Of a stretch of 64,000 bases of DNA, positions 813-41,011 are shown one piece after another. Source of the DNA: a virus. Under the pieces are notes generated by a model. It was given only the letters and a program-made list of their open reading frames with translations, was not told where the DNA came from and ran no database searches. The stretch covers positions 96,799-160,798 of the IMG/VR virus record IMGVR_UViG_3300011115_000874; one strand, written 5' to 3'. The first letter of the stretch is position 1. The number at the start of each line of letters is the position of its first letter. The position numbers and the translations under genes were made by a program.

Positions 813-1041
813 ACTCTTCTCTAACTTCTTTAGGTAACAATTCTACTAATACTTTTCCTGTCACTACATCATAGAAGCATGGAATAGGCATAATAGAATC
901 TTCTGTTGTTCCAGTTAAAAACTTAGATACCTTACGTAAAATTACTCCCTCAGCAAATACATGATTTCCATCTGGTGAAATAATAGGTTGGGTTTGCTTA
1001 AAGTCTACATTGACATTAAGCGGTTGTTTTGGTTCACTCAT
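799..1041 (-). CDS. small phage hypothetical protein
   Basis: 80 aa ORF packed into the operon, AAAGTTATG start context. Confidence 0.6.
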   Translation of the reverse strand: MSEPKQPLNVNVDFKQTQPIISPDGNHVFAEGVILRKVSKFLTGTTEDSIMPIPCFYDVVTGKVLVELLPKEVREEYDNI

Positions 1042-1045
1042 AACT

Positions 1046-1705: not shown

Positions 1706-1756
1706 AATTATTTAGTTATCAATTATAAATATATCAACATTGATAAAGAAATAATC

Positions 1757-2677: not shown

Positions 2678-2682
2678 ATAAC

Positions 2683-2714
2683 CAAATATAATAAAAAATG
2701 GCCCGAAGGCCAAA
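2683..2714 (-). promoter_or_regulatory. -33/-7 type promoter with embedded terminator-like hairpin
   Basis: TTTG-N20-TATATTTG; contains GGCC-TTCG-GGCC followed by ATTTTTT. Confidence 0.8.
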
Positions 2715-2739
2715 TTTTAATATAATATGTTTTTAAAGA

Positions 2740-2994
2740 TTATTTACCAATTCTAGGTTTAATATCAGATGGGAGAGGTCCTGTACTTTTAATACTAAAC
2801 TTAGAAAGAAATTTGTTTTTAAGAGTTGATTTTTGTTCTGGGGTTAATTTATTTTTCTTTGAAAAATAATCTATAACAGATTCAGTTGCATCTTCATCAC
2901 CTATGTATTCTTCAAAATCCTTAATAAACTTATTTTCAGATAATACTTTAGTAATTTCTTCTTTAATAATATGTTTTAACTCAGATACTTTCAT
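2740..2994 (-). CDS. putative capsid-internal protein, leader class MKxSxLKxIIKEE
   Basis: N-terminus MKVSELKHIIKEEI matches the ORFs at 16797 and 17316; function inferred. Confidence 0.55.
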   Translation of the reverse strand: MKVSELKHIIKEEITKVLSENKFIKDFEEYIGDEDATESVIDYFSKKNKLTPEQKSTLKNKFLSKFSIKSTGPLPSDIKPRIGK

Positions 2995-2996
2995 AA

Positions 2997-3509
2997 TTAA
3001 TATTTTTTACCTAATTCTAATATTTTAGACAAACCAATTAAAGCAGCACCAACACCAGCAGTAAGACCAAGACCAGAAAGAAATGCTACATTACCAGGCA
3101 TATCATTAAATATTGCTTTCATTAAAAACATATTCATAAAAGGAACAAGGTTTGAAGCATATAAAACTTTTCCTAAAGTACCAGAAACTTTAGCTATTTT
3201 ATCTTTTGGACTTAAAGCTTCATCAATCTCAGCTACAACACTTTGAATTTTAGGTTCAATCTTATCAACTGCAGTTTCAATAGATGTGCTAGATGTTATA
3301 CCTAAATCAGCTAATGCTGATTGAAGATTAACTTTTTCTTCATCTGAAAGTTTATCAACCATTGCTTCTATTGATGGATCTGATTCTACTTTATCTTCAA
3401 TTTTTTCAGCAGCGGCTATTGCTTTAGCATCTTCTTCAGTTAATTCTTTATATTGGCTTTCAGTGATCAAACCAGCTATTTTTTGCATTTTATAAAATTC
3501 TCTATTCAT
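2997..3509 (-). CDS. putative capsid-internal protein, leader class FxKMQKxAGLITE, hydrophobic C-terminus
   Basis: Leader shared with 58809..59651 and with the scaffold C-terminus; two hydrophobic segments at the C-terminus. Confidence 0.55.
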   Translation of the reverse strand: MNREFYKMQKIAGLITESQYKELTEEDAKAIAAAEKIEDKVESDPSIEAMVDKLSDEEKVNLQSALADLGITSSTSIETAVDKIEPKIQSVVAEIDEALSPKDKIAKVSGTLGKVLYASNLVPFMNMFLMKAIFNDMPGNVAFLSGLGLTAGVGAALIGLSKILELGKKY

Positions 3510-3531
3510 AGTATTAGTTTAATTATACATA

Positions 3532-3789
3532 TTAATAGTCTCCGTACATGTTAAATTTCTTTGGTGGAATTGGTTTTATTTCTGCTACAGTTGTTGAAAT
3601 AGCATACAATTCACCTTTTATAGGTGATAATCTAAAATCACATGGGTGTTGAGTTTCTTGAAAGTAACCTTCTAATGCCTCAGTTAATGAAGGATATACT
3701 GTATTAGGGTCGCTTAGCAGCGCCCAACTGTCTCCAGGTGGGCGTCGCTTAGCGATTAATACTAATTCTTCTTTGACTTCAGTAGCCAT
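3532..3789 (-). CDS. hypothetical protein
   Basis: 85 aa ORF whose start overlaps the groEL stop. Confidence 0.6.
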   Translation of the reverse strand: MATEVKEELVLIAKRRPPGDSWALLSDPNTVYPSLTEALEGYFQETQHPCDFRLSPIKGELYAISTTVAEIKPIPPKKFNMYGDY

Positions 3790-5405
3790 TAGAACATACC
3801 TCCCATTCCGCCCATCATATCATCCTGTTTTTTATCTTCAGGTTTATCTACGACAGTACATTCTGTTAATAGAATTGTTCCAGCTACTGATGCTGCGTTC
3901 TCGATTGCGGTACGAGTAACTTTAGTTGGATCAATAATACCTGCGTCTTTCATGTTAACGAATTTTTCAGTTAATAAATTATATCCTTTCCAGTTATCAC
4001 TACCACCTAATTTATTAATCAAATAATAAGCCTCTTGTTCTGTAGAACCAGCGTTAGTAAGAATTTTCATAAATGGTGCACCACATGCTGTGTAAACAAT
4101 TTGGCCACCTACTGATTTACGATTCTTGATTGCTTCACGAGCGTATAATAAAGCAGCGCCACCTCCAGGTACAATACCTTCTTCAATTGCGGCTTTAGTT
4201 GCTTGAAGCGCATCATCAACTCGGTCTTTCTTTTCTTTGACCTCAGTTTCAGTATTTCCACCTACGTGAACAATAGCTACTCCTCCGACAAATTTCGCGA
4301 GTCTTTCTTGTAGTTTTTCTTGTTCGAAAGGTGTTTTTGCTTTTTCGATTTGGAGCTGTAACTCTTCAATACGTGCTTGTATTCGTTCAGATTCTCCTCT
4401 TCCGTCAACGATTGTTGTTTCATCTTTTGTAATTGTAACTAATCGGGCTTCACCAAACCATTTTGAATCAAAACGATCTAATTTCATACCCTTATCAGTA
4501 CTAAATACCTCACCTCCTGTTAAAATTGCAATATCATCTAAAATAAGTTTTCTACGGTCACCAAAGTCAGGAGCTTTAACTGCTGCTACTTTAATAGTAC
4601 CTCTCATTTTATTAACGATAAGTGTTGCTAATGCTTCACCATCAATGTCTTCTGCAATGATAAGTAATGATTTACCTTGTGATGAAACGCTTTCTAACAA
4701 TGGTAACAATTCTTTGATTGAAGTAAATTTCTTATCAGCAATCAAAATCATAGCATTCTCAAGTGTACAACTCATTGTATTGTTATCTGTAACAAAGTAA
4801 TGAGATTTGTAACCACGATCAAACTGCATACCTTCTACTGTTTCAAGATATGTTTCACCTGATTTAGATTCTTCAATGTAAACAACTCCTTCACGACCTA
4901 CTTTATTCATTGCTGTAGCAATCAATTCTCCTACTTCAGGATCGTTATTACCTGAGATAGTAGCTACTTGTTTTAGTTGATCTTCAGAGCTAATGTCTTG
5001 TGAGATACTCTTGCGTAATTCTCCAATTACATCTTTAACTGCGGCATCAATATCACGCTTGATAGATACTGCATTTATTCCGTTGTTTAAGTGCACTAAA
5101 CCGGCTTTAACCATTTCTTGAGCCAACAATGTAGATGTAGTAGTACCATCACCTGCACCTTCAGCTGTCTTAATAGCTGCTTGTTTTACAAGTTGTACAC
5201 CCAATTCTTCAATTGGATCTTCAAGTGAAATGTTTTTAGCTACTGTTACACCATCTTTTGTTGATTGTGGGTAACCATTTTGATTTGCTATAACCACATT
5301 ACGACCATTTGGACCTAATGTAGACGTAACTGCGTTTGCTAGCTTGTCAATACCAGTTACGAGTTTTTTCCTTGCTTCAGGACCGAATTCGATAATTTTA
5401 CTCAT
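3789..5405 (-). CDS. groEL: chaperonin GroEL
   Basis: TLGPNGRNV, KDGVTVAK, GDGTTT, GMQFDRGY, APDFGDRRK, GIVPGGG, GGM tail. Confidence 0.99.
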   Translation of the reverse strand: MSKIIEFGPEARKKLVTGIDKLANAVTSTLGPNGRNVVIANQNGYPQSTKDGVTVAKNISLEDPIEELGVQLVKQAAIKTAEGAGDGTTTSTLLAQEMVKAGLVHLNNGINAVSIKRDIDAAVKDVIGELRKSISQDISSEDQLKQVATISGNNDPEVGELIATAMNKVGREGVVYIEESKSGETYLETVEGMQFDRGYKSHYFVTDNNTMSCTLENAMILIADKKFTSIKELLPLLESVSSQGKSLLIIAEDIDGEALATLIVNKMRGTIKVAAVKAPDFGDRRKLILDDIAILTGGEVFSTDKGMKLDRFDSKWFGEARLVTITKDETTIVDGRGESERIQARIEELQLQIEKAKTPFEQEKLQERLAKFVGGVAIVHVGGNTETEVKEKKDRVDDALQATKAAIEEGIVPGGGAALLYAREAIKNRKSVGGQIVYTACGAPFMKILTNAGSTEQEAYYLINKLGGSDNWKGYNLLTEKFVNMKDAGIIDPTKVTRTAIENAASVAGTILLTECTVVDKPEDKKQDDMMGGMGGMF

Positions 5406-5406
5406 A

Positions 5407-5718
5407 TTATTGTTCTGTTGTTTTTATAATTGCTAAAACTTGATTTTCAGGACATACCCAATACTCTTGACCTTCCAATTCAATTTTGTTAGGACCCATA
5501 CTTGGTAACATTACTTCCATTCCTACTTCTAATACTGTAGGAATAAATGCTCCTGAGTAAGATGATTGACCTGGGCCTACAGATACGATAGTACCAATAA
5601 GTGCTTTTTCTTTACCCATGTCGGGTACAATGATGGAACCATACATTCCTTCTTCTTCTTCACGGGGTTTAACTATAACCGCGTTAAACGTTGCTTGTAA
5701 CTGTTTCATATTATTCAC
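5407..5718 (-). CDS. groES: co-chaperonin GroES
   Basis: GSIIVPD, GTIVSVGPG, VLAII; directly upstream of groEL. Confidence 0.93.
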   Translation of the reverse strand: MNNMKQLQATFNAVIVKPREEEEGMYGSIIVPDMGKEKALIGTIVSVGPGQSSYSGAFIPTVLEVGMEVMLPSMGPNKIELEGQEYWVCPENQVLAIIKTTEQ

Positions 5719-6031
5719 TAAAATTAACTATTTGATTGATTTCTTCTTTTACTCGTTTCCATTCAGTAATATACTCATGAATAGTATTATACTCTTGACG
5801 TTTTTCTACTTTTAGTTTAGCGATTGAATTTAATGCTGAACCAAAATTAGTATGGAATGAAATAGATTTGACTGCTTCTTTAGTCCGCGTTTTGCGACCT
5901 CTTCCTTTTGTGTTTGTACCTGGGTAGACAGTTTCGTAGATTGTGTAACTGTTTGCATCACGACCGATGAAATACGGTTCGATAGACGGGTCTTTGATCA
6001 GTGTAACTGACGATAAATCGTTTTTTTCCAT
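5711..6031 (-). CDS. hypothetical protein
   Basis: ORF with likely start ATG 6031 (AAAAGTTATG), downstream of a promoter. Confidence 0.65.
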   Translation of the reverse strand: MEKNDLSSVTLIKDPSIEPYFIGRDANSYTIYETVYPGTNTKGRGRKTRTKEAVKSISFHTNFGSALNSIAKLKVEKRQEYNTIHEYITEWKRVKEEINQIVNFSE

Positions 6032-6046
6032 AACTTTTATTTTATT

Positions 6047-6078
6047 GTAATATAACATTTTTTGCTTGGGTAGCCAAG
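6047..6078 (-). promoter_or_regulatory. -33/-7 type promoter upstream of the groES/groEL operon
   Basis: CTTGGC...TATATTAC, 20-nt spacer. Confidence 0.7.
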
Positions 6079-6099
6079 CTTTATTATAAATATGTCAAC

Positions 6100-6825
6100 T
6101 TATTGTTCTTTTGCAACAATATAGTAAGTACTTTGTAACTCTTTGTTAGAGAATGTGAGTTTCATTAAACCATTTTGATTTATATATAAAGTACCAGATT
6201 CAGAACCTTTATTAGCAACTAATATTTCCTTCAACAAATCAGAACCATATACTAAATTAAATATTGAAGGTACATTAATAGTTGGATTTTGGATGGAATA
6301 AGTAACTTTATTAGCATATTCAACATCGCCTCCGAAAGTAAACTCTAAACCGTTTAAACCCAACCTAACAACAACGTTATCGCTATTTGTTAATGCGTTT
6401 TTAGATTTAACTAACGCTGTTATTGCTTCATCATCAATTGCTACTTGAACCTCATGGTCTTCAGAACCATTATATTTACCTGTTTTAGGAATGGTTAATA
6501 AGTCAGCTAAAGCATAATTTAGATTAAACTGGTTGTCTGCTATTAATAGTTTAGTTATTACTTTACCTTCTTTAGCATAACCAAGATCCAAATCACCTCC
6601 TGTGATAGATAATAGTTTATCTAGTTGAGTAGTGTTATTAATTCCTATCTCAGATTCAGGTAATGGAAAACCATTATAAGTTACTGTTCCTAACATTTCA
6701 CGAGTAGGAGCAGTAAAATTAATAGTTAGCTTTTTATTAGCGTCTATTTCCCATTTAACATTTTCTATTTGACCATTTAAATGGTACTTTTCAATAATTG
6801 CTTGTAGCTGTAGTTTCGATATCAT
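6100..6825 (-). CDS. DNA sliding clamp (gp45/PCNA-like)
   Basis: About 240 aa, C-terminal GLMKLTF...YYIVAKE, lies between PolB and the clamp loader; start moved to ATG 6825. Confidence 0.8.
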   Translation of the reverse strand: MISKLQLQAIIEKYHLNGQIENVKWEIDANKKLTINFTAPTREMLGTVTYNGFPLPESEIGINNTTQLDKLLSITGGDLDLGYAKEGKVITKLLIADNQFNLNYALADLLTIPKTGKYNGSEDHEVQVAIDDEAITALVKSKNALTNSDNVVVRLGLNGLEFTFGGDVEYANKVTYSIQNPTINVPSIFNLVYGSDLLKEILVANKGSESGTLYINQNGLMKLTFSNKELQSTYYIVAKEQ

Positions 6826-6830
6826 ATAAC

Positions 6831-6862
6831 CTAATATAATAAAAAATGACCCAAAGGCCAAA
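6831..6862 (-). promoter_or_regulatory. -33/-7 type promoter with embedded hairpin, upstream of the clamp
   Basis: TTTGGCCTTTGGGTCATTTTTTATTATATTAG. Confidence 0.78.
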
Positions 6863-6868
6863 CTAAGT

Positions 6869-7375
6869 TTAGATTACGTCTTTTACTGTGTCTGCAAATT
6901 CTTTAAAGTCCTCATCATCTGCTAGCATAAATTTATATTTGTCTGCTTCTTGTTTTGAGTATATAAAATTATTACCTTCTTCATCACGATATGAACTATA
7001 CAAATCATCAACATCCTCTTCTTTAAAACATTCTGTTCCTTCAGGAACATATAATTCTATACCATTTATTAAGCTTTGTAATCTTCTTCCAAAGAACATT
7101 CTATCAGCGTCTGTTTTAGAATCAGTATTAAAACCTATATCTTGCATTTTGTTAGTGAATTTGTCTCCTCCACTTTTAGTTGTTCTTTCAAAATCTTGCA
7201 TTTGTTGATATTCTCCCCACAATGCTATCATCACTTGTGGTTCAGTAAGTGTTCCACTATCTAATCCTATATCTCGAGTCCCACTACTACCTTCAGTATA
7301 ATATATATTAAAAGGTAAAACAAGCATTTCAAGGTTAGCTAATGCTTCTTTTAATAAGTTTGTTAATTTAATCAT
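6869..7375 (-). CDS. putative capsid-internal protein (leader MIKLTNLLKEA), acidic
   Basis: Own late motif at 7380-7387, LLKE leader, followed by the hairpin/promoter element. Confidence 0.5.
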   Translation of the reverse strand: MIKLTNLLKEALANLEMLVLPFNIYYTEGSSGTRDIGLDSGTLTEPQVMIALWGEYQQMQDFERTTKSGGDKFTNKMQDIGFNTDSKTDADRMFFGRRLQSLINGIELYVPEGTECFKEEDVDDLYSSYRDEEGNNFIYSKQEADKYKFMLADDEDFKEFADTVKDVI

Positions 7376-7379
7376 GAAT

Positions 7380-7387
7380 ATAAATAT
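7380..7387 (-). promoter_or_regulatory. putative late promoter motif ATATTTAT
   Basis: Same motif as upstream of the structural genes. Confidence 0.6.
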
Positions 7388-7389
7388 GA

Positions 7390-9972
7390 TTAAAAAGCGA
7401 AAAATTTAGCTACGTTAGCATTTAATGGTGGGAACTCCCACTTTAAATCTTTATAAAGTTCCTTTAATTTGTTTAGTAGTAATGATTCAAAAATTTCATC
7501 TACATCAATATATGTCTTAACAAATTTTTCAATCTCATCAGGTACCTTAGCATTTGGTAATCCAATTGTATCTAACTTATAAGGATTAGCTTTTAAGTTA
7601 ATTATGAATATCTTATCACCTTCTACTACTGATTCGTATTGTTTATCTAAACGTTTGAATTTTAATAAGTCATTGTAACGAACAGCTGCTTTAGTATTAC
7701 TAGGTGCTTTCAATCTGAATGTGCTAAACATTTCACCTGCTCTAGGAGCGTTCCTATATGATGCTATTTGTTTTACACCTGTTGGTTTGCCTAATTCTCG
7801 AGGATCTAATGTCTTAACTAATTTATAGAAATCAATAATGGTTTGATCTATTTCTGTTTTAGACTTACCAAACAAAATATCTTTAATTAGTTGTTCACCA
7901 AAGCCTTTAAATCGTTTATTCATGTTAGACTTCATCAACTCAAGTCCTTTCATGTCTAGCTCTTCAACAGCAACACCTTCCTTATTAGTAATATACATTG
8001 CATATCTTCTCTTACCTGTAACTAAGATACCTTTAGCAATTACCTCTTGTTTTAATTGGAAATAATGTTTTTTAGGATTAATATTAAATACTTTCTTACA
8101 TAACTCATTTAAATAGTAGTTAGACTCATCTTGAATTTCAGTAGCCATTTTTAATATTAATTCATCTTTTTGTTCAGGTGTTGAATTAGGATACCTATGT
8201 TTTAGTAAGTCACCTAACTCAATATACATGGAGTCAGTATCACTAATACAAATAAACTGTTTATCAGTATTTAACTCAGTATTAAGTTTATTATTAGCAA
8301 ACACAATTGATTCCTGTGTAAGTCTTTGTCCGCTGTTAGTAATAGCAGCACTACAAATTAAATGTCCGTCTGTATATCTCCATCCATTCTTAGCAAATGT
8401 GCCATACATAGCGTTTTGCAAGATCTTAAATGCATGTTGGAACAAATCATATAGTTTATAATTAGCCCAATCTTCAGATTTACCTGCTGTTTTCTTTAAA
8501 CCTCTATAATGTTCTCGTTTTTCAAACCAACCTTCTAAAATCTTAGCAACTACACTTTGTTCATCAGTCCTAAACATAGCACCTGAAGCTGATAATGTGA
8601 ATTCATTATCTTCAATTATCTTAATCAGCTTGCCAATTGATATTTGAGCTGCTTGTAATGTGTAATTTTTTTTATTTAGTTTTTCAATTGTTATTACTTC
8701 ACTAGGATCTCGTTCCTTAAGTTTTTCTAAACTATGATTTTGTTCATAGGTTGGATTTAAAGTAACAATTCTACCTACTAATGTTTCAATTCCTAAATTA
8801 AGTGACTTAATGATTGAGGGATATAGTGAAGTAAAGTCTAAGTCAATTACATCAAAGTATAGACCTGGTATTGGTTCTAATAAGTAACCACCTGCATATG
8901 TTGAGTTAGTTGCCTTACGAGATGGGTTATGAGTTGTTGGTTTATTAGGTGAAATAATACCTTCACGTCGTAAGTGCTTTAATATAGCACCTTCATTCAT
9001 TACAGTGTTATAATAAATTGACTCATAAGGTATATTACAAATATGAGAAATCATAACTGTCAATTCAATAAACTTTAATTTGTCTTCTAGTTTTTCTAGA
9101 ATCTCAACGTCTCGTAAGTTATAGTCAATAAAAGTATTTAAATCATTTTTAAACAATGTATTCAAATTACCTTCATATTCAATCTTACCTAACCCAACAT
9201 ATTTGGTTCCAATGTCACCTAATTTATATGATGGTTCTTCTTTCATAATGTACTTCTTATGAAGTAACATATAATCTAGATGATTCACACCTCCAATTTT
9301 AACTTGGTTTTCACCATTAAAATCACGTGCCTCAACTCTACCTATTGGTGATAACCGGCTTACCTCGTCTGTACCTACAACTTGCGACATTCGGTAGTAT
9401 AAGTACGGTAAGTCGAAGTAAGCCGAGTTATAGCCGACTAATATGGTGGGATCTAACTCTTCATACTTAGATAAAAACTTACCTATTAATTCTCGTTCTG
9501 AGCCACAAGGTATAATAATTTTATCGTCCTGGTTCGTTTCAGGTATTTGTTTTGACTTATCAACAATAAAACATATCTTTTGTTTAGTAGTCACATCTAT
9601 CAGAGCAATAGATGTTAAGGGCATAGGAGCAGACCTAATATATTCAGGTGTTAGTGCTCCACCCATTTCAATCTCGATATCTATATAGACTATATTATGC
9701 CAAGATGGAACTACATCATCAAATTTATAATATAGTTCTCGTAACACATATAATGACTTGTCGATATCTTTTTCTAGTAGGTCAGGATCGTTTTTATCTA
9801 ATTTCTTAGTAGGTATAGCCCATCCTCCAGTTAGTACTGGTTTAGCCCCTTCTTGTTGTTCATTTACTCTTTTCCAGTAAGTAGGCTGGAATTGGAAATC
9901 CATCCAGCCTTGCTTATCGTCTCGTAAATGGTAAGTATAAGTTTGAAAGTCATAATAAATACTTTGATACAT
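7390..9972 (-). CDS. family B DNA polymerase
   Basis: ExoI DIE, ExoII GYNSAYFD, ExoIII YNLRD; motifs DFTSLYPS, KILQNAMYG, DTDS, KRRY. Confidence 0.98.
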   Translation of the reverse strand: MYQSIYYDFQTYTYHLRDDKQGWMDFQFQPTYWKRVNEQQEGAKPVLTGGWAIPTKKLDKNDPDLLEKDIDKSLYVLRELYYKFDDVVPSWHNIVYIDIEIEMGGALTPEYIRSAPMPLTSIALIDVTTKQKICFIVDKSKQIPETNQDDKIIIPCGSERELIGKFLSKYEELDPTILVGYNSAYFDLPYLYYRMSQVVGTDEVSRLSPIGRVEARDFNGENQVKIGGVNHLDYMLLHKKYIMKEEPSYKLGDIGTKYVGLGKIEYEGNLNTLFKNDLNTFIDYNLRDVEILEKLEDKLKFIELTVMISHICNIPYESIYYNTVMNEGAILKHLRREGIISPNKPTTHNPSRKATNSTYAGGYLLEPIPGLYFDVIDLDFTSLYPSIIKSLNLGIETLVGRIVTLNPTYEQNHSLEKLKERDPSEVITIEKLNKKNYTLQAAQISIGKLIKIIEDNEFTLSASGAMFRTDEQSVVAKILEGWFEKREHYRGLKKTAGKSEDWANYKLYDLFQHAFKILQNAMYGTFAKNGWRYTDGHLICSAAITNSGQRLTQESIVFANNKLNTELNTDKQFICISDTDSMYIELGDLLKHRYPNSTPEQKDELILKMATEIQDESNYYLNELCKKVFNINPKKHYFQLKQEVIAKGILVTGKRRYAMYITNKEGVAVEELDMKGLELMKSNMNKRFKGFGEQLIKDILFGKSKTEIDQTIIDFYKLVKTLDPRELGKPTGVKQIASYRNAPRAGEMFSTFRLKAPSNTKAAVRYNDLLKFKRLDKQYESVVEGDKIFIINLKANPYKLDTIGLPNAKVPDEIEKFVKTYIDVDEIFESLLLNKLKELYKDLKWEFPPLNANVAKFFAF

Positions 9973-9990
9973 AACCTTTATTTAAAAATT

Positions 9991-10329
9991 TTAAGTTATT
10001 ACTAACGTGAATACTCCTGTTCCTTTTAATCTATAATTTGTCCCAGTAATAGCTACTGATGGGGTGAATGTAATAACTGTGGTTCCAGGTTGTATAACAG
10101 CTGAAGCAACATACGGGGTTTGTATAAATCCTGATAATGCGGGGGCAGACCATGATCCATTAGCACAAGCTTGAGGAATATTAATAAATGTTCCATTATT
10201 ATCTGGTATTGTTTCTAAAGTGAAATATGATGAACCACCAGTATTAGTAAAAGTAAATGTTTTTAATCCTAATAAGTTCTCTCCAACTGTTCCTATTCCG
10301 TATAATTGTGCTGATGTATAAGATGCCAT
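9991..10329 (-). CDS. small beta-rich Thr/Gly protein, possibly virion-associated
   Basis: Composition resembles the structural proteins; late motif at 10345-10352. Confidence 0.5.
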   Translation of the reverse strand: MASYTSAQLYGIGTVGENLLGLKTFTFTNTGGSSYFTLETIPDNNGTFINIPQACANGSWSAPALSGFIQTPYVASAVIQPGTTVITFTPSVAITGTNYRLKGTGVFTLVIT

Positions 10330-10354
10330 TATTTATTGTTTATCATAAATATGG

Positions 10355-10849
10355 TCACTTGTCTAGAAACTGTTTAAGATTAGGTCTAAAATAGTTTATT
10401 GATTTCATTACCTTACGATCTCGAGAGCGATATACTACATAGTAATCACCTTGTTTTTCATAATGGCAACGTTCACCTTGTTCTTGTTCTCTAAGACGAA
10501 CAGTGAAATTAGCTTCCTCTTCTGTCTTACAAGCTTTACTCATGTTTGAAGCTTGAACCTCAGCATACGCGGGTAAGATTTTATCTTTTAGACCATGAAG
10601 CATAGCTCCATTACCTAATGAAACATAAGTAATATCACAAAGTGCATCTAACACTTCTACAACATTTCCTGTTTCACAAGCGTGTTTATATTCCTCTAAT
10701 TCCTCTAGAATAAAATCATAAACAAACATCCATTCTTTTTTATCTGGGATAGTAGGTTCATAGTTATTTGGTTTACCCATTGTAGCGTTAAATTCCTCTA
10801 CCTCGCTAACAAATGGAACATAATTTTCTTTAGATTGAGACATGGCCAT
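10355..10849 (-). CDS. MazG-like / PRA-PH family NTP pyrophosphohydrolase
   Basis: ILEELEEY...EVLDALCDITYV, EVQASNMSK. Confidence 0.88.
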   Translation of the reverse strand: MAMSQSKENYVPFVSEVEEFNATMGKPNNYEPTIPDKKEWMFVYDFILEELEEYKHACETGNVVEVLDALCDITYVSLGNGAMLHGLKDKILPAYAEVQASNMSKACKTEEEANFTVRLREQEQGERCHYEKQGDYYVVYRSRDRKVMKSINYFRPNLKQFLDK

Positions 10850-11525
10850 TATTTATTTTAAGTGAATCAAAAAATTCTTTACGTGCTAAATTATCGTTTT
10901 CCATAAACACACCTGATGCTTTAGTAGTAACCATTGCAGCACCTTGATGTTTAATACCTCTACAACTAACACAATTGTGAGTTGCAACTACAGTAACAAT
11001 AACACCATGATTACCTTCACAAACTTTATTTACTGCTTGATGAATTGCTGCTGTTAATTGTTCTTGGATAGCACCTCTACGACCAAAGTGTTCTACAATA
11101 CGATTTAATTTAGATAAACCAATTACTCGACCTTCAGCACCTGCAATGTAACCAATATGTACTACACCTCTAATTGTTTGGTGATGGTGTGAACACATTG
11201 AAGTTAATTGAATATTACGTTCAATAATTACCCCATCATAACCATCCGATGGGAATGAAGTAATATCAGTAAATCCATTATAGCGACCAGCCCATAGATC
11301 ATTAACATATGCTTTAGCTACACGACGAGGTGTATCAGCAGAGTTAGGATCGTTTTTCCAATCACATTTTAATGCTGTTAAGAAGTTACCAAAATGTTCA
11401 GTTGCTTCTTCAATCATTTGTTGCTTTTCTTCATCCGTTAATGGGCGATCTAAAGCTGATCCATTTGCTAGACCTGTATTCACACACTCAATGTCGTTGT
11501 GAAATTTTCTTCTATTATTTTCCAT
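10830..11525 (-). CDS. folE: GTP cyclohydrolase I
   Basis: DTPRRVAK, SMCSHH, GLSKLNR, IQEQLT, HNCVSCRG. Confidence 0.97.
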   Translation of the reverse strand: MENNRRKFHNDIECVNTGLANGSALDRPLTDEEKQQMIEEATEHFGNFLTALKCDWKNDPNSADTPRRVAKAYVNDLWAGRYNGFTDITSFPSDGYDGVIIERNIQLTSMCSHHHQTIRGVVHIGYIAGAEGRVIGLSKLNRIVEHFGRRGAIQEQLTAAIHQAVNKVCEGNHGVIVTVVATHNCVSCRGIKHQGAAMVTTKASGVFMENDNLARKEFFDSLKINNGHVSI

Positions 11526-11530
11526 ATAAC

Positions 11531-11562
11531 CTAATATATTAATTTATTTCTAGACTGCCAAA
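11531..11562 (-). promoter_or_regulatory. -33/-7 type promoter upstream of folE
   Basis: TTTGGC...TATATTAG, 20-nt spacer. Confidence 0.72.
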
Positions 11563-12059
11563 ATATATGGCAAACTCCTTTTCTTACCTAAATCATCATC
11601 CATTCCAAACCCAACTACCCATTCATCCTCAAGAACAAAACCGTAAAGTGAACCTGTAGGCATATCTACTTCATTAATATAACGTTTAATTAAAGTGACC
11701 ATTTGAACACTTGCTGGGTCAAATTGGTAGAAATGATTTGCTAATGCATTCATTGTTATTCCTGAGTCGTAAATGTCATCTATAAGATAAACATGCTTAC
11801 CAGTTACATCTACTGATTTGTCTAGTATCATATTTAGGTCACCTCGTTCTTTACCTTCATATGATCTTACTTTTACAAAATCACATTCTGGATCTAGTGA
11901 GGATAATTTTTCAACTAGTTTAGAATAAAAAACAAACCCACCATTTAGTACACATACTAAAACAATAGGAATTTTTTCTGATTTATGGCGATTTAAAATT
12001 TGTGTAGCGATAGAATCAATTCTTGATTCAATAATTCTATTTTCAAATAATACTTTCAT
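11550..12059 (-). CDS. hpt: hypoxanthine/guanine phosphoribosyltransferase
   Basis: VLNGG, RSY loop, PRPP motif LIDDIYDSGIT, VVGFGMD, RSLPYI. Confidence 0.92.
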   Translation of the reverse strand: MKVLFENRIIESRIDSIATQILNRHKSEKIPIVLVCVLNGGFVFYSKLVEKLSSLDPECDFVKVRSYEGKERGDLNMILDKSVDVTGKHVYLIDDIYDSGITMNALANHFYQFDPASVQMVTLIKRYINEVDMPTGSLYGFVLEDEWVVGFGMDDDLGKKRSLPYILAV

Positions 12060-12318
12060 GTAATTCTTTTATTGAGTGTAATCCTGGGTAATGTTTAATT
12101 TTTCCTTTATTAGATAATATTACGTGTGGGTAATAATCTACTGAAAATGCTGTTTCTAAATCTGTGTCTTCATTAATAAAAATCATTTCGAATCCAAGTT
12201 TATCAGCAATTTCCTGGATCATAGGGCGAGCTACTTTACATCCTCCACACCATTCAGCATAGAAGAATGTGACAGTATTTTTTGTTTTAAGCGCCTCAGT
12301 TAATAATTTTTTATCCAT
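12043..12318 (-). CDS. thioredoxin-like protein
   Basis: FYAEWCGGCK, cis-Pro motif YYP. Confidence 0.88.
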   Translation of the reverse strand: MDKKLLTEALKTKNTVTFFYAEWCGGCKVARPMIQEIADKLGFEMIFINEDTDLETAFSVDYYPHVILSNKGKIKHYPGLHSIKELHESII

Positions 12319-13100
12319 TATACTTCTCGTTTAGTGTCAAATGCAATAATATGTTCTCTACCTGTAAAATTATAACCATTGTCTCTACAGAAATCCATCA
12401 CCATAGGATATACTCGAATTAATTCATCTCTTGTATCACCAGGAGGCATTAACCAAGTTTTACGTTTTGGAATATCCATCTCAACTCTAAATGCTTCAAT
12501 CTCAGTCCATGCTTCAGGCATTTCGATAGGATTGCAAACTGGTTTAAAATGATAGTCATAATGGTATTCTAATGTTTTTCTTATCGTTTCTTTATCCAAA
12601 CGGTGTTTATTATGTTGGTCCACCATTTTTTGGTCTGCGACTTTACCTTGCGGTGTAAGAGTCCCAATTGCAGGAACACTGTTACTGAACTTAGGACTAA
12701 GAGATATAAGGCCAATAGGGAAGTCAGTTTCAACGAAATGACTACCTTCTGTTTCAATTGTAATAAATAAGCCACGTTTTTCTGCTAAATGAGTTAATTC
12801 GTTTACTAGATCAGGATGCATTGTAGGTGAACCACCTGTTAACATCATTTCTCTAATATGAGGGTTATTGTCATAAATAGCTATAATATCATTAAATGTA
12901 TATTTTCCTTTCTCAGGATGAATACTTGTATACCAACTATCACACCACCCACCATCACCAAACCAACATCTATGAGTACATCCTGTAGTTCTAATAACTA
13001 CTGTAGGCATCCCAGCTCTACTACCTTCTGATTGTACAGCTGTATACAGCTCTACAATAGGTAATTTTTTATTATAGTCTTCTATTCTTCCTGGTTTCAT
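12318..13100 (-). CDS. queE: 7-carboxy-7-deazaguanine synthase (radical SAM)
   Basis: QSEG, RTTGC, LTGGSP, IETEG, LSPK; CX3CX7C cluster motif; cluster context. Confidence 0.92.
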   Translation of the reverse strand: MKPGRIEDYNKKLPIVELYTAVQSEGSRAGMPTVVIRTTGCTHRCWFGDGGWCDSWYTSIHPEKGKYTFNDIIAIYDNNPHIREMMLTGGSPTMHPDLVNELTHLAEKRGLFITIETEGSHFVETDFPIGLISLSPKFSNSVPAIGTLTPQGKVADQKMVDQHNKHRLDKETIRKTLEYHYDYHFKPVCNPIEMPEAWTEIEAFRVEMDIPKRKTWLMPPGDTRDELIRVYPMVMDFCRDNGYNFTGREHIIAFDTKREV

Positions 13101-13579
13101 ATTTCTTCGTAAATTGAGCTGTTATTATCATTTTCAAAACACTCTACTTTAATACATTTACAACGACCAGCATCTGTTTTAGCTAATACTTCATTAAAGT
13201 GTTCATACACTAAACGAGCATTACTTTCAGCACCCATCTTTTCTAAGAAATGTACTTTACATAGTCCTTCCATTTGCATTTGCTCAAACAAATCACGATA
13301 TGGATCATCTGCTTGAATTAATGTTGTATGATCCCACATATGGTCCATCCAATCCTTTAAGCCATTACCTTTAGGTGGTGTTTTAAATCCACCATAATCA
13401 ACAATCCAATTCATATCATCTAATTGTTCATCAATATTAGGTTCATTAGATGCAAACCATACTTTAAATTTTAAAGCATAACCATGTAATAGCTGGCAGT
13501 GTGAATGTGCTGCTTTATATTGTCTGATTGCTACTGAGTAGTTTTCAAATAATTTAGTTGATATATATCTTGTTGCCAT
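13097..13579 (-). CDS. queD: 6-carboxytetrahydropterin synthase
   Basis: HCQLLHGY, WIVDYG, DHTTL, AES, FEN. Confidence 0.92.
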   Translation of the reverse strand: MATRYISTKLFENYSVAIRQYKAAHSHCQLLHGYALKFKVWFASNEPNIDEQLDDMNWIVDYGGFKTPPKGNGLKDWMDHMWDHTTLIQADDPYRDLFEQMQMEGLCKVHFLEKMGAESNARLVYEHFNEVLAKTDAGRCKCIKVECFENDNNSSIYEEI

Positions 13580-13580
13580 A

Positions 13581-13835
13581 TTATTCTCCGTTTAACCAAT
13601 TAACAATTTGTGAGTGTGATTTTACTCCTGTAAAACGTCTTAATTCTTGTCCGTTTTCAGCTAGTACTACTGTAGGTACATTTCGTATATTAGCAACCTC
13701 TAGTATTGCTGGGTCAACATAATCAATATTTTGTTTATGGACTGGGATCTGTCTTGCAATTTCATCCATAATTGGGCCCAATGTCTGACATGGAGTGCAC
13801 CAATTTGCTGTGTAGTAGTATAATTCTTTAGGCAT
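13581..13835 (-). CDS. thioredoxin-like protein
   Basis: ANWCTPCQ, RNVPT, RFTG. Confidence 0.9.
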   Translation of the reverse strand: MPKELYYYTANWCTPCQTLGPIMDEIARQIPVHKQNIDYVDPAILEVANIRNVPTVVLAENGQELRRFTGVKSHSQIVNWLNGE

Positions 13836-13992
13836 TGTCTTCAGTTTCTGGATTTTGTCGTTGTAATTGTTCTTTTAGCATAGCCATAAATTTACGTTCC
13901 ATGACTAATTTATTTTTAGCAACAGTTTCATTACGCTTTGCAATACGTTTGTTGTGGGCTTTCTTACCACCTCGTTTTTTAGATGTTGGCAT
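13828..13992 (-). CDS. 54 aa basic hypothetical protein
   Basis: Not in the ORF track: MPTSKKRGGKKAHNKRIAKRNE...EDNA*, fills the gap and overlaps both neighbours. Confidence 0.7.
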   Translation of the reverse strand: MPTSKKRGGKKAHNKRIAKRNETVAKNKLVMERKFMAMLKEQLQRQNPETEDNA

Positions 13993-14791
13993 TATTATGA
14001 TTATTTAAAATTGTTTTTACATGTTCTACTACTGTTTCCCAACTTACTGGGCCTGTCTCATCAGCATATTCAACTGGATCTGGTTTGCCTAGTTTCATAA
14101 ATGCTTCAACTCGTTCTACAGATGATGCTGATTTATAATCGCTGTACCAGTTAAGAAAGTAATAAATTGGTTTATATGATGTATTAGTGCGCTTATACAC
14201 TTCATTAAAGTTTAAACCAAGTTTATTTACACATTTATCTCCATCTTCTAAAATACCAAACTTATCAGTATTAAGATAAGGAGTATAATGATATACTTTT
14301 TCAGCACCCCAGTTACCTGCTTTAAATGCTTCAAAATCAGCATCTCTAAATTCTTGACGACAGTCAGGATAAATAGCATGATCACCAGCATGAATACCCA
14401 TTGCGATAGCACATTCAGTATCTTTTTGTTCAGCAATTGATAATGCGACTGCTTGAATAATAGAACTAAATATTTTATTACGATTTGGAACTACTGTTGC
14501 TTTCATATTTTCTTCAGCATAATGTCCTTCAGGTACTTCTTCACCTCCAGTTACTAAAGCTGAGTTTAGTAGTTGTGATAATCCATCTAATTTAATTACT
14601 TGATGTTTTACATTTTGTCCTTTTTGATTTATGTATGATACTAAATCTTTAGCACGCTCTAATTCTACATTATGTTTTTGTTCATAATCGAATGATAGTG
14701 CTGTAACTTCATAGCCATTGGCAAGTAGATGAAGCAATAGTGTGGAGCTATCCATTCCTCCACTTAGTGATAACACTGCTTGTTTCTTCAT
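13979..14791 (-). CDS. queC: 7-cyano-7-deazaguanine (preQ0) synthase
   Basis: SGGMDS PP-loop, VPNRN, YPDCR..F; start moved to ATG 14791; lacks the C-terminal Zn-binding cysteines. Confidence 0.94.
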   Translation of the reverse strand: MKKQAVLSLSGGMDSSTLLLHLLANGYEVTALSFDYEQKHNVELERAKDLVSYINQKGQNVKHQVIKLDGLSQLLNSALVTGGEEVPEGHYAEENMKATVVPNRNKIFSSIIQAVALSIAEQKDTECAIAMGIHAGDHAIYPDCRQEFRDADFEAFKAGNWGAEKVYHYTPYLNTDKFGILEDGDKCVNKLGLNFNEVYKRTNTSYKPIYYFLNWYSDYKSASSVERVEAFMKLGKPDPVEYADETGPVSWETVVEHVKTILNNHNNANI

Positions 14792-14792
14792 T

Positions 14793-15056
14793 TTAACAAT
14801 ATTTTTTATATAAATTTTCAATAATTTCTATTTCTTCATTACTCATTGAGTAAAACTTTGAAGATAATCCAATTAATTTATCATGGAATTGAGATTCCAA
14901 TAATGATGTAGTTGGTGGGATATCATAACCTTCTAATTTGGTTGTTATGGTTGTATATCCATCATCTTCTAGCCATTCGGCCATTTTTTGTTTTTCATAA
15001 GAACCCATGTTATCATAAACATCATCTAAATCTACGTCAATACTAATCCAACTCAT
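14793..15056 (-). CDS. acidic hypothetical protein
   Basis: 87 aa ORF between the TGT-like gene and queC. Confidence 0.6.
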   Translation of the reverse strand: MSWISIDVDLDDVYDNMGSYEKQKMAEWLEDDGYTTITTKLEGYDIPPTTSLLESQFHDKLIGLSSKFYSMSNEEIEIIENLYKKYC

Positions 15057-15061
15057 AACTT

Positions 15062-15868
15062 TTATTTTACTATTTTATCTAAACGATTAATTTTTCTAAA
15101 TTTATTTACATTGTAATGTAAAGCATACCAGTTAATATCTTCAGGAGCGCGATTCATAACATGGTCAATTTTAGTAATTGGTTTTTCATCTAAACCATGT
15201 TCCTTATACATTTTATCTTCCATTGCAGCCATAATTGGATTTGAAGTATCTATACTTTCAATGAATGGGTAATTCTGGTGGAATAAAAACTCTTGAGGAG
15301 CAGCACATCCAAGTAAGTGAACTCTATCACTAGATTGAATAACATCGTTATTATACAACTTACCTATAACGTTTACTCGACCCATTGCAGTAGAAATTGC
15401 TGGTAGTGGGTGTATGAAATGGTTTTTATAATAACCCGCACCATATGAAAATGCTATTTTCTTATAACCTAATGCTTTGTATTTTAAATAACATTCAGCT
15501 GCTTCATCAATGTTAGTTGCTTGAACTACTGCTACTTTAGTAGTATAGTGAGGTAATTTAATTTTAGCCCATTCAACAGCATTATCAATAGATGCTTGCA
15601 TATCTTGCCATACATCAGGTACTATAAATTCATTTGGTTCAAAATAATTAACCCAATGTAATAGACGTTCTGTTTCATAGGCATGACCTAATTCATGTAA
15701 ACTATTATCCATGATAATATAACGACCATCTTTCTTTGCTTGATCAAAATACTTAAAGTATTCATACTCACTATCTAGTAAGTGAGGCAAACAATAATCA
15801 TAATCATTGAATGTTTGGGAAATGTTTAGTACTGCTAATGGTACTTCATGTGAGACTTTTACTTTCAT
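15062..15868 (-). CDS. TGT-fold guanine transglycosylase, DpdA-like
   Basis: Ordered motifs IIMDNS, VPD, VAVVQ, VHLLG, SIDTS parallel the TGT/DpdA barrel motifs; first gene of the que/folE operon. Confidence 0.75.
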   Translation of the reverse strand: MKVKVSHEVPLAVLNISQTFNDYDYCLPHLLDSEYEYFKYFDQAKKDGRYIIMDNSLHELGHAYETERLLHWVNYFEPNEFIVPDVWQDMQASIDNAVEWAKIKLPHYTTKVAVVQATNIDEAAECYLKYKALGYKKIAFSYGAGYYKNHFIHPLPAISTAMGRVNVIGKLYNNDVIQSSDRVHLLGCAAPQEFLFHQNYPFIESIDTSNPIMAAMEDKMYKEHGLDEKPITKIDHVMNRAPEDINWYALHYNVNKFRKINRLDKIVK

Positions 15869-15878
15869 AACTTATTAT

Positions 15879-15910
15879 TTAATATAAATATATCTTATTA
15901 TATAGCCAAA
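15879..15910 (-). promoter_or_regulatory. -33/-7 type promoter upstream of the DpdA-like/que operon
   Basis: TTTGGC...TATATTAA, 20-nt spacer; overlaps an ATATTTAT motif. Confidence 0.72.
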
Positions 15911-15919
15911 CTACCTTTC

Positions 15920-16441
15920 TTAATAAGGTAGATCATTTTCTGGTGTATTCTTTAGAAATGTTTTGTACTGGTTGATCAACTCTTCAGTAGTACCTTCAGC
16001 ATGTTCATAAATGAATGTATGTACTTGTTCTTTAGTACCACCAATCCAATGTCTTAGACTGTATTTTAGACTCTCCATTCGTTCTCGTTCATCACGTTCA
16101 AAATCTTTTCTTAGATTCTCAATACGTCTATTATACATTTTAATAGCATTACGTTCGTGTTCTTGTTTTACTTCAAAACCTTTATCACTGTTACGTATTT
16201 CTGCTATTTCTTCAGCCATCCACCAATACTCATAATTGATATACTTGGCATATGGTGAGTATTCAAAGTCACCATTTTTCATTTTTTCATCAATACGAGC
16301 TTTAGCTCCTAATGGCTTATGAATTGGGTAACGTCTATGCCAATAAAATACATTAAACTTAGCTAGTTTAGCTGGTTTAGGTGGTGCTTCAATGCCAAAT
16401 ATAGGATTGAATTCTTTTAAAACTTGTTCTACTGTAACCAT
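15920..16441 (-). CDS. hypothetical protein
   Basis: 173 aa ORF, no recognised motif. Confidence 0.6.
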   Translation of the reverse strand: MVTVEQVLKEFNPIFGIEAPPKPAKLAKFNVFYWHRRYPIHKPLGAKARIDEKMKNGDFEYSPYAKYINYEYWWMAEEIAEIRNSDKGFEVKQEHERNAIKMYNRRIENLRKDFERDERERMESLKYSLRHWIGGTKEQVHTFIYEHAEGTTEELINQYKTFLKNTPENDLPY

Positions 16442-16734
16442 TATTTTTCTATTAATTCACCCGCAAATACTTCTTCTAATAATTCCTCAATGTCAGGTAA
16501 GTCAGTTAACTCTCTAAAACGTTCAGCATCAAAATTAGGCTCTAATAATTGACCTTGATATTGAACTGTTCTAGCATTGGTTATTTCTTCTAAAGTAACA
16601 CCAATACCGTGAGGGAATTTGTCTACAGTCCTAATTGTGTAATATTTTCCTTTGATAGGACGATTAGGTACAGTTTCTATTGTCTTTTGTTTCCATGTAT
16701 CATTGATACATTCTACTAGTGCTCCTACTTTCAT
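16441..16734 (-). CDS. hypothetical protein (SH3-like MKVGALVECI start)
   Basis: 97 aa ORF directly after a promoter element. Confidence 0.6.
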   Translation of the reverse strand: MKVGALVECINDTWKQKTIETVPNRPIKGKYYTIRTVDKFPHGIGVTLEEITNARTVQYQGQLLEPNFDAERFRELTDLPDIEELLEEVFAGELIEK

Positions 16735-16738
16735 ATCT

Positions 16739-16770
16739 TAAATATAACAAAGAATGGCCCGAAGGCCAAA
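16739..16770 (-). promoter_or_regulatory. -33/-7 type promoter with embedded hairpin
   Basis: TTTGGCCTTCGGGCCATTCTTTGTTATATTTA. Confidence 0.78.
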
Positions 16771-16796
16771 CTTTAAATGTGATATGTTTTTAAATC

Positions 16797-17312
16797 TTAA
16801 AGATTTAATCTATTAAATTTCTTTGCTTTGTCAGCTATACTTTGAAGCATTTTAGTTTCACGAGTATCTTCTCCACCTTCCCATTGGTCTGATAGTTTTA
16901 CTATTTTATCCATCATTTGTTTATTGGGAACTTCATAAAATGTATAATAATCGTTTATATCATCTTTAAATATATCTTTAAACTTTTGTGTGAAATCATT
17001 TTTATCTGAGGCTTCTATCCCATGGAAATTACCTAACTCATCAGATTGGCCTTTAAAATTAACAATTATAAAGTATTTGTTTTTACCTTCTGTTTCATTT
17101 ATTGGATTTTCGTCTTTTGGATTTTCATCTTCAGGATATATTATATCCATAACAGCTTGTACATCAATATTAACTCCTAGTTGTTGTATTGCTTTAAGAG
17201 TATCCATAATGCCGTTTTGGTAAGCAGATGGAGTTTGTTCTTTACCTGGGTAATCAAATCCAAGTTCATTTAACTCTTCTTTGATGATTTGTTTTAGTTG
17301 TGATAGTTTCAT
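16797..17312 (-). CDS. putative capsid-internal protein, leader MKLSQLKQIIKEELNE
   Basis: Shared leader; body unrelated to its neighbour. Confidence 0.55.
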   Translation of the reverse strand: MKLSQLKQIIKEELNELGFDYPGKEQTPSAYQNGIMDTLKAIQQLGVNIDVQAVMDIIYPEDENPKDENPINETEGKNKYFIIVNFKGQSDELGNFHGIEASDKNDFTQKFKDIFKDDINDYYTFYEVPNKQMMDKIVKLSDQWEGGEDTRETKMLQSIADKAKKFNRLNL

Positions 17313-17672
17313 AATTTATATTTCTTCAACGTGTGATATGTTAAAAAATGTTTTACCTTCATTAGTAATAAAGTTAACTCGAAATGGCTTATCCATTGGA
17401 GCCCTTCTCTCATCAGCTGCTTCAATTACTACTTGATCTACAACACCACTACCTTGTTTAAGTCTAGCATCTCCTTTCCATGTAGAAAATTCTAAATTTT
17501 TACCTTTATACTCATTAGTATATTGTTTAGAAAGTTTAGCGTAAACACTAGGCATTATTCTTTCTACATCTACAGATATGTTGTATGTTACATCATTCCA
17601 TTGAGCGTTACTTTCTTCAACAGTTTTGTTAAACTCTTCTTTAATGAGTTGTTTTAGTTGTGATAGTTTCAT
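17272..17672 (-). repeat. 41-nt direct repeat encoding the shared leader (17272-17312 and 17632-17672)
   Basis: aactcttcttt(g/a)atga(t/g)ttgttttagttgtgatagtttcat, 2 mismatches, 360 nt apart. Confidence 0.95.
17316..17672 (-). CDS. putative capsid-internal protein, leader MKLSQLKQLIKEEFN
   Basis: Shared leader; late motif at 17690-17697. Confidence 0.55.
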   Translation of the reverse strand: MKLSQLKQLIKEEFNKTVEESNAQWNDVTYNISVDVERIMPSVYAKLSKQYTNEYKGKNLEFSTWKGDARLKQGSGVVDQVVIEAADERRAPMDKPFRVNFITNEGKTFFNISHVEEI

Positions 17673-17689
17673 TTTAAAAATAGTTTATT

Positions 17690-17697
17690 ATAAATAT
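17690..17697 (-). promoter_or_regulatory. putative late promoter motif ATATTTAT
   Basis: ATATTTATAATAAA upstream of the leader-bearing ORF pair. Confidence 0.65.
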
Positions 17698-17698
17698 A

Positions 17699-19423: not shown

Positions 19424-19433
19424 TTTTTGTTTT

Positions 19434-20384: not shown

Positions 20385-20400
20385 ATATTTTAATATAACA

Positions 20401-39901: not shown

Positions 39902-39933
39902 AATATATTATATAATATAAATATGTAAAAAGC

Positions 39934-40965: not shown

Positions 40966-41011
40966 ATCTTTTATTTGTTATAACTTTAATGTCGTATATA
41001 AATATATAAAG

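Follow-up and report, generated by a model that had tools for sequence, protein, structure and literature searches.

Composite terminator-like and promoter-like junctions beside variable genes of the replication module in an uncultured T4-like phage

Background

The genomes of T4-type phages (RB49/phi1, T4/PST and KVP40/nt-1) contain PeSLs, elements in which a strong host-type early promoter is combined with a terminating stem-loop, mostly placed between the two boxes at -35 and -10 (Arbiol et al. 2010, PMC2839356; Comeau et al. 2014, PMC4122927). There are ~50 copies of them per genome, beside variable open reading frames (ORFs) and also in the surroundings of gene 43, and they coincide with the end points of indels and with the crossover sites of mini-circles (PMC2839356; PMC4122927). 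PeSL-like blocks also flank the hypervariable internal-protein loci of T-even phages (Repoila et al. 1994, as described in PMC2839356), whose proteins have only a capsid targeting sequence in common (PMC3012670). As regards the stem-loop itself, a UUCG loop closed by a C-G pair is an exceptionally stable RNA tetraloop, first found in T4 mRNA (PMC4371310). In this work we considered three elements of ~32 nt, each joining a small hairpin to promoter-like boxes, in the replication module of an uncultured T4-like phage from a lake/freshwater source. They lie in a stretch of 64,000 nt (hereafter the window), which is the last 64 kb of the 160,798-bp record IMGVR_UViG_3300011115_000874, a record with direct terminal repeats (positions 96,799 to 160,798).

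Based on the analysis of the window and of related loci, the three elements are in our judgement probably composite junctions of the PeSL type, in which a terminator or attenuator and a host-type promoter would be united, placed at boundaries where small genes with a leader and a late-type motif of their own turn over by gain, loss and exchange.

Results

Features of the three elements

An ungapped alignment of the three elements reaches the start codon of the gene that follows (Table 1). The core of the hairpin was matched three times in the window, always on the minus (coding) strand, at positions 2700-2711, 6848-6859 and 16756-16767; in shuffled versions of the window 0.15 matches were expected, and none of 100 shuffles reached three. 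In each element TTGGCC is followed, after 17 nt, by TATATT, and the hairpin is inside this spacer. A consensus scan returned all three as terminator-like (five pairs, a 4-nt loop and a T-rich tail) and flagged element 3 as a promoter with 17-nt spacing.

At the RNA level, the hairpin consists of a GGCC stem and a UUCG tetraloop, with a helix between A-tract and U-tract as an extension. The A-tract adjoins the element on its 5′ side, and 7-27 nt separate the end of the upstream gene, at its stop codon, from the -35 box. The start codon of the downstream gene comes 6-8 nt past the -10 box, without a Shine-Dalgarno sequence. Compared with shuffled sequences, folding gave a z of -4.2 for element 1 and of -3.1 for element 3. 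Just 5′ of the hairpin, cassettes 1 and 3 (the groups of variable genes described below) share a 13-mer, the core of which, AACATATT, is kept at the cargo-bearing junctions of relatives and is missing at the cargo-less ones.

With regard to the type of promoter, the consensus with TTTG near -33 and TAnnTTTG near -7 fits element 1 exactly and elements 2 and 3 with one base off in the -7 box, while the replacement hairpins of relatives (see below) keep TTG only. The arrangement TTG-N20-TATATTnn suits a sigma-70-like -35/17/-10 promoter equally well as a Bacteroidota -33/-7 promoter.

The 16 nt from the -10 box to the ATG are identical in four genes, precisely those of the clamp loader (2675-2690), the clamp (6823-6838) and GTP cyclohydrolase I (11525-11540) and a gene outside the window (90901-90916 of the genome). 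In these four genes the ATG is 7 nt past the -10 box, a distance which suggests leaderless or near-leaderless messages. For the genes of the clamp loader, the clamp and GTP cyclohydrolase we also considered that the sequence shared near their start codons might be a RegA-type translational operator. This idea was dropped: no RegA could be detected, since a phmmer search with cyanophage RegA returned nothing and the ORF after gp62 is an HNH endonuclease, and the shared stretch is, in addition, unconserved in relatives.

Selection on the hairpin and on the promoter geometry

A covariance model was built from the eight copies of the hairpin present in the whole genome and was used to search the relatives. 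It returned 36 copies, in which 96% of the cells were paired, against 48-68% when the partner columns were slid, and three pairs showed changes on both sides (AU/GC, UA/AU/GC and CG/UA). Independently of this alignment, several relatives carry at the same junctions unrelated, longer hairpins, some of them with a GAAA loop. Two versions of these replacement hairpins differ by a C-G to U-A swap, and every one of them sets TTG exactly 17 nt ahead of the -10 box. Structure and promoter geometry are hence kept while the sequence changes, which argues against a sequence-specific DNA operator. Together, these changes indicate that selection acts on both the RNA hairpin with its U-tract and the promoter.

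The promoter family in the whole genome

The eight copies of the hairpin in the 160.8-kb genome are all on the minus strand, and in every case a T-rich tract comes next, then a TATATT box and then a start codon. They represent a subclass of ~38 host-type promoters (TTGGCY, 17 nt, TATATT); by the strict pattern TTGGCN-N17-TATATT, this family has 37 members genome-wide, most of which have no hairpin. The spacer is exactly 17 nt long in nearly all the members, which always stand just upstream of a start codon; about 20 of them precede small ORFs at 57-65 kb of the genome, the presumed early region. At least 6 T were counted in the 9 nt before the -10 box in 7 of the 9 promoters with a strong hairpin and in 3 of the 28 others (Fisher p = 3.5e-4). 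The hairpin and the U-tract are therefore statistically coupled and selected together, as would be expected of a terminator.

These results can be compared with an earlier reading of the window, made from its letters alone (hereafter the sequence-only reading). The three near-identical elements that it had listed are confirmed by the matches to the hairpin core, as is the sequence that it had noticed ahead of the element in the two larger cassettes, now delimited as the 13-mer. Its proposal that one element has the features of a terminator and of a promoter at once agrees with the covariation and with the replacement of hairpins in relatives, which show both features to be under selection. Conversely, the genome has more than these three elements, eight in all within a larger promoter family, and they are not confined to the cassettes; for the same reason, the statement that the five other promoters of the class lack the hairpin is valid inside the window and not as a general rule. 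The -33/-7 assignment is compatible with the bases, without being preferable to the -35/17/-10 one.

The three sites in related phages

Related loci were collected by scanning IMG/VR, 28 of them centred on the clamp gene and 80 on that of the reductase, with an identity of the flanking proteins ranging from 99% to ~45%. All the counts of gaps and hairpins given here refer to the relatives, leaving out the window, and hairpins were counted by eye.

At site 1, where the 85-aa gene and gp44 are the flanks, 8 relatives have a gap of 47-60 nt and 18 one of 0.3-1.2 kb. At site 2, between the polymerase and the clamp, the distance from stop to start is 26-53 nt in 17 of 24 relatives, and the remaining 7 have varied cargo of 0.2-1.7 kb. 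At site 3, between the reductase and the 97-aa gene, 4 relatives have a gap of 59-69 nt and the rest one of 0.3-2.7 kb. All three sites are hot spots of variable cargo between conserved flanks, which is what the sequence-only reading had predicted for synteny in related phages.

The hairpin-promoter was found at sites 1 and 3 also in relatives without any cargo, hence it represents there a resident unit boundary where cargo docks. At site 2 the hairpin was present in none of the 17 cargo-less relatives and in 3 of the 7 cargo-bearing ones, besides the window itself, and only at this site did the hairpin-promoter arrive with the cargo. For sites 1 and 3 the sequence-only reading is amended by these findings. 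In the cargo-less relatives at site 2, the clamp gene has a plain promoter, the -10 box of which is kept, with the -35 box within the last codons of the polymerase gene. The insertion corresponding to cassette 2 covers positions 6844-7389 of the window, so that late motif, ORF, hairpin and -35 box all belong to it, and on the right it ends in the T-tract/-10 region. Breakpoints were located in that region and also immediately 5′ of the hairpin.

Cassettes, cargo genes and leaders

The searches of Pfam and PHROGs gave no match for any of the five cargo ORFs of the window. Three classes of N-terminal leader cover all of these five ORFs and most of the cargo ORFs of relatives. Between paralogues the leaders match by 97-100% over 38-40 nt, which is enough for homologous exchange. 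Cargo genes in tandem are separated by 2-3 nt, with no signals in between. The only detectable relative of the body of cassette 2 (53% identity) belongs to another phage and immediately follows the reductase gene there, where it is fused to a leader of a different class, so that bodies move between sites and between leaders.

All three leader classes end in (I/L)-x-E, and the genome also encodes a gp21-like head maturation protease. In T4, sites of this kind are cut by the prohead protease. The cargo proteins may accordingly be targeted to the capsid and processed.

In five of the loci considered for site 3 (L056, L060, L066, L070 and L074), a gene of 320-336 aa with a signal-peptide-like N-terminus and without a late motif of its own follows either the reductase gene or a cargo gene of the leader type. 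The cargo of site 3 is thus not all of the leader type.

In each cassette the first ORF has a late-type motif 3-16 nt upstream. It is exact at cassettes 2 and 3; at cassette 1 it is a one-base variant, TATGTATA, as the sequence-only reading had also noted, which we saw again in many relatives. At site 1 the motif or its G variant stands directly after the upstream stop codon in nearly all the cargo-bearing relatives (16 nt further in one, missing in another) and is absent in the cargo-less ones. The stretch from the upstream gene to the late motif measures 14-26 nt and contains no terminator, so that read-through from the upstream gene should enter the cassettes, and the view of them as insulated does not hold on the 5′ side. 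Nor is cassette 1 a separate late unit, as had been supposed: it is the end of a longer unit that starts with the late motif at 6085-6092 and includes GroES and GroEL.

The late-type motif

In the whole genome we counted TATTTATA 49 times in sense and 18 times in antisense orientation, and 34 of the 49 sense copies are at most 45 nt upstream of a start codon. The motif precedes the genes of the sheath, of the baseplate hub and of other structural proteins, it is nearly missing in the early region and it has no -35 partner. By analogy with T4 it is a putative late promoter. Reverse-complementing TATTTATA gives exactly the late promoter of T4, TATAAATA; the motif is strongly strand-biased, and its common extended form includes TATAAT.

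Two further observations concern hairpins close to this motif. A 6-bp hairpin at 6064-6079 lies past the late motif of the GroES/GroEL unit and ahead of the 115-aa gene's start codon; it is followed by an A-run rather than by a T-run and may be a 5′-end stabiliser. Strong T-tract hairpins with 8-9-bp stems are present at 55775-55813, 40997-41040 and 39916-39959, with the late motif 5-16 nt further on; they are candidate terminator/late-promoter hybrids of the structural module, which would make them the late-gene counterpart of the elements studied here.

Discussion

Proposed function of the elements

Read as RNA coming from upstream, each element would form a very stable small hairpin and then a U-rich tract, and would act as an intrinsic terminator or attenuator. 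At the level of DNA, these 32 nt would also be a host-type promoter, with TTG at -35, a 17-nt spacer holding the hairpin and the T-tract, and TATATT at -10. The elements would represent boundaries between transcription units in the replication module, and the small genes, with their own late-type motif and leader, come and go between the stop codon of the conserved upstream gene and the hairpin. The exchange would most likely take place by homologous recombination, for which the common sequence is supplied on the 5′ side by the leader and on the 3′ side by the 3′ flank together with the hairpin and the -10 region.

Several results weigh against this interpretation. The stem is short (4 G-C and 1 A-U pairs) and the U-tract is interrupted; moreover element 2, which has one G-U pair and a UUUG loop, folds no better than shuffled sequences (z -1.4), hence termination may be partial. 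The alignment used for covariation was fitted to the model, a procedure that favours pairing, and its sequences are mutually related. The hairpin does not strictly track the cargo, being at ~30 of 41 cargo-bearing and at ~8 of 30 cargo-less junctions (pooled relatives, counted by eye and phylogenetically non-independent), and 4 of the 7 cargo-bearing junctions at site 2 have a plain promoter. The boundary between the structural and the replication modules (~27483 of the window) is likewise a plain promoter with no hairpin, so late read-through is not blocked everywhere. Finally, a phmmer search with cyanophage gp55 returned no late sigma factor, but the same test also missed the clamp and is thus uninformative at such divergence.

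Alternative explanations

The hairpin could act on the finished RNA, as a 3′-end stabiliser or a processing barrier to which read-through transcripts would be trimmed back, protecting the upstream message, with the promoter being as described above. The short stem and the interrupted U-tract would be in agreement with such a role, as would the stability for which the cUUCGg hairpin, first found in T4 mRNA, is noted (PMC4371310), and conservation at the level of structure suits a stabiliser equally well as termination. However, the strength of the hairpin is tied to the T-rich tract immediately 3′ of it (p = 3.5e-4), which in turn pairs and covaries with the A-tract upstream; these are two hallmarks by which intrinsic terminators are known, and a stabiliser would need neither. 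PeSL stem-loops of similar design, furthermore, terminated efficiently in reporter assays (PMC2839356), and we regard stabilisation as unlikely to be the explanation.

We rejected, as very improbable, the hypothesis that the GGCC...GGCC inverted repeat is a DNA operator placed in the promoter spacer for a phage or host regulator, like a middle-promoter activator box. Its position between -35 and -10 is a frequent one for repressor binding and the sequence is near-identical at eight promoters, but orthologous junctions carry unrelated palindromes of other lengths, with pairing potential alone in common. In addition, the G-U and U-A/A-U/G-C variants keep the pairing of the sense-strand RNA, the loops are of two classic types of stable RNA tetraloop (UUCG and GAAA) and the coupling with the T-tract has no role in an operator. 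The opposite simplification, in which the elements would do nothing but terminate, the promoter-like boxes would have arisen as by-products of AT-rich sequence and of the T-tract, and the downstream genes would be reached by read-through or from other promoters, draws on the fact that sigma-70-like matches in this AT-rich DNA are not above chance (89 found against 109 expected). Such by-products would hardly produce TTGGCY-N17-TATATT 37 times, with a nearly constant spacer, mostly free of hairpins and always just ahead of a start codon, nor would they hold TTG at exactly 17 nt in the replacement hairpins or keep the -10 box in the cargo-less junctions of site 2, with the -35 box inside the end of the polymerase gene; we give this hypothesis very little credit. 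A functionless trace of the recent duplication of one junction, which the flanking sequence common to elements 1 and 3 might recall, was already disfavoured and is the least credible of all: the elements are kept at the same junctions, with compensatory changes, in relatives whose flanking proteins are down to 65-75% identity, and they do not decay at a neutral rate. The composite junction of terminator or attenuator and promoter is, therefore, the explanation that we prefer.

Genomic context

Table 1. Position of the elements, cassettes, late-type motifs and main genes in the window
Feature	Position (nt)	Strand	Details
Element 1, before clamp-loader gene	2683-2714	minus	-35 box 2708-2713; hairpin 2699-2712; -10 box 2685-2690; ATG 2675-2677
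Element 2, before sliding-clamp gene	6831-6862	minus	-35 box 6856-6861; hairpin 6847-6860; -10 box 6833-6838; ATG 6823-6825
Element 3, before conserved 97-aa gene	16739-16770	minus	-35 box 16764-16769; hairpin 16755-16768; -10 box 16741-16746; ATG 16732-16734
13-mer common to cassettes 1 and 3	2725-2737, 16782-16794	minus	just 5′ of hairpin
Cassette 1	2740-3509	minus	two cargo ORFs: 170 aa (2997-3509), 84 aa (2740-2994); conserved N-terminal leader on each
Cassette 2	6869-7375	minus	one 168-aa cargo ORF; MIKL-type leader
Cassette 3	16797-17672	minus	two cargo ORFs: 118 aa (17316-17672), 171 aa (16797-17312); common MKLSQLKQ-type leader
Late-type motif, cassette 1	3524-3531	minus	one-base variant (TATGTATA); right after stop codon of conserved 85-aa gene
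Late-type motif, cassette 2	7379-7386	minus	TATTTATA; 3 nt ahead of cassette 2 start codon
Late-type motif, cassette 3	17689-17696	minus	right after stop codon of ribonucleotide reductase large subunit
Late-type motif of longer unit	6085-6092	minus	heads unit of 115-aa gene, GroES, GroEL, 85-aa gene and cassette 1
Ribonucleotide reductase small subunit	19434-20417	minus	
Ribonucleotide reductase large subunit	17699-19423	minus	conserved upstream flank of site 3
Family B DNA polymerase	7390-9972	minus	conserved upstream flank of site 2
PCNA-fold sliding clamp (gp45-like)	6100-6825	minus	241 aa; conserved downstream flank of site 2
GroES	5407-5709	minus	
GroEL	3789-5405	minus	
Clamp-loader large subunit (gp44-like)	1757-2677	minus	conserved downstream flank of site 1
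Homing endonuclease	1046-1705	minus	
gp62	381-812	minus	
gp21-like head maturation protease	59655-60263		

In the whole genome 218 of the 224 ORFs are on the minus strand. A T4-like replication module occupies the left part of the window and comprises, in the order of transcription, the small and large subunits of ribonucleotide reductase, a 7-deazaguanine cluster, the family B polymerase, the PCNA-fold clamp, GroES, GroEL, gp44, a homing endonuclease and gp62; the genes of portal, prohead protease, major head protein, sheath and baseplate are further right. The clamp was identified by a fold search, in which an AlphaFold model built from ten homologues returned the PCNA fold (TM 0.76, E 8e-12); in the profile search of the PDB, PCNA had appeared at E = 0.35 only.

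A megablast of positions 1-20000 of the window against the GenBank phages found no close cultured relative, and the best tblastn match of the polymerase among cultured phages had 32% identity. Rfam gave no family match across the window. A Shine-Dalgarno core precedes just 16 of the 218 genes. The best match of GroEL in cellular bins (68%) is on a 3.4-kb contig binned to a Flavobacteriaceae metagenome-assembled genome, while the remaining matches are at ~50% and scattered over several phyla. The scarcity of Shine-Dalgarno sequences and this GroEL match are weak hints to the host.

Three homing or HNH endonuclease genes are present in the replication module (1046-1705, 21789-22406 and 1-384, the last running off the window), and the late motif precedes each of them. 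The one at 1046-1705 is absent from that junction in all 28 relatives, where the gap between gp44 and the next gene is 2-230 nt. In four relatives (L013, L014, L016 and L025) the polymerase match is split near residue 566-570 by an insert of 0.7-1.2 kb, for which an intein, an intron and an endonuclease insertion are all possible; in the window, the gene is uninterrupted.

Comparison with known systems

Going beyond the junctions themselves, we tentatively propose, as a possibility that we rate well below that of the composite junctions, that the hairpin-promoters are the landing pads of a dispersed cargo system. In such a system, late leader-tagged proteins would be loaded into the capsid and injected like the internal proteins of T4, and they would be swapped among phages as leader-body modules docking at several junctions of the replication module, with the leader and the junction serving as two recombination handles. 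If true, the PeSL and internal-protein principle would be extended to a distant T4-like lineage, probably infecting Flavobacteriaceae, with near-leaderless and Shine-Dalgarno-free genes. The junctions and the leaders mark where the fast-evolving genes of this phage group are located, genes which may be injected or may counter host defences. The relatives represent, moreover, an unusually clean natural experiment, in which the same junction occurs with and without cargo and with differing hairpins, always with the 17-nt promoter spacing, so that the dual constraint on a single 32-nt sequence becomes visible.

When considered against the intrinsic terminators of T4 mRNA with a cUUCGg loop (PMC4371310), the elements have the same G+C-rich stem, UUCG closed by C-G, U-rich tract and upstream A-tract that can extend the helix. 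Unlike in those terminators, the stem has just 5 pairs and the tract is interrupted and doubles as promoter spacer.

With PeSLs the elements have in common the small intergenic composite of promoter and stem-loop, the latter mostly between -35 and -10 or overlapping one of the boxes, with an AT-rich stretch upstream. They also share the many copies, the adjoining variable genes without annotated function, around the polymerase gene too, and the coincidence with the end points of indels between close relatives. This likeness is at the level of sequence, whereas the promoter and terminator activity of PeSLs is known from reporters. There is no sequence homology between the two, the stem being here of GGCC with a UUCG loop and in PeSLs of the G-run/C-run type. 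The elements of this phage also lack a Shine-Dalgarno sequence and have the start codon 6-8 nt past the -10 box, a difference related to the host rather than to the architecture. In contrast to PeSLs, the cargo upstream of the three elements of the window has its own late-type motif and leader, so that the junction would part late cargo from early-type genes.

As at the internal-protein loci of T-even phages, small variable genes in which only a short N-terminal leader is conserved lie between conserved regulatory blocks, and their bodies are shuffled among related phages; the (I/L)-x-E ends of the leaders and the encoded gp21-like protease are further points of likeness with the internal proteins. 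The cargo has no sequence similarity to the internal proteins of T4. It differs also in being distributed over at least 3 junctions within the replication module, as opposed to two dedicated loci, and in having three leader classes. The arrangement is thus one already known in T4-type phages as PeSL cassettes, with features of PeSLs and of internal-protein loci apparently combined in a distant lineage. Gene exchange in a very distant freshwater lineage with different translation signals would be organised, too, by the kind of composite terminator/promoter junction that is known from the T4-type phages of enterobacteria and Vibrio.

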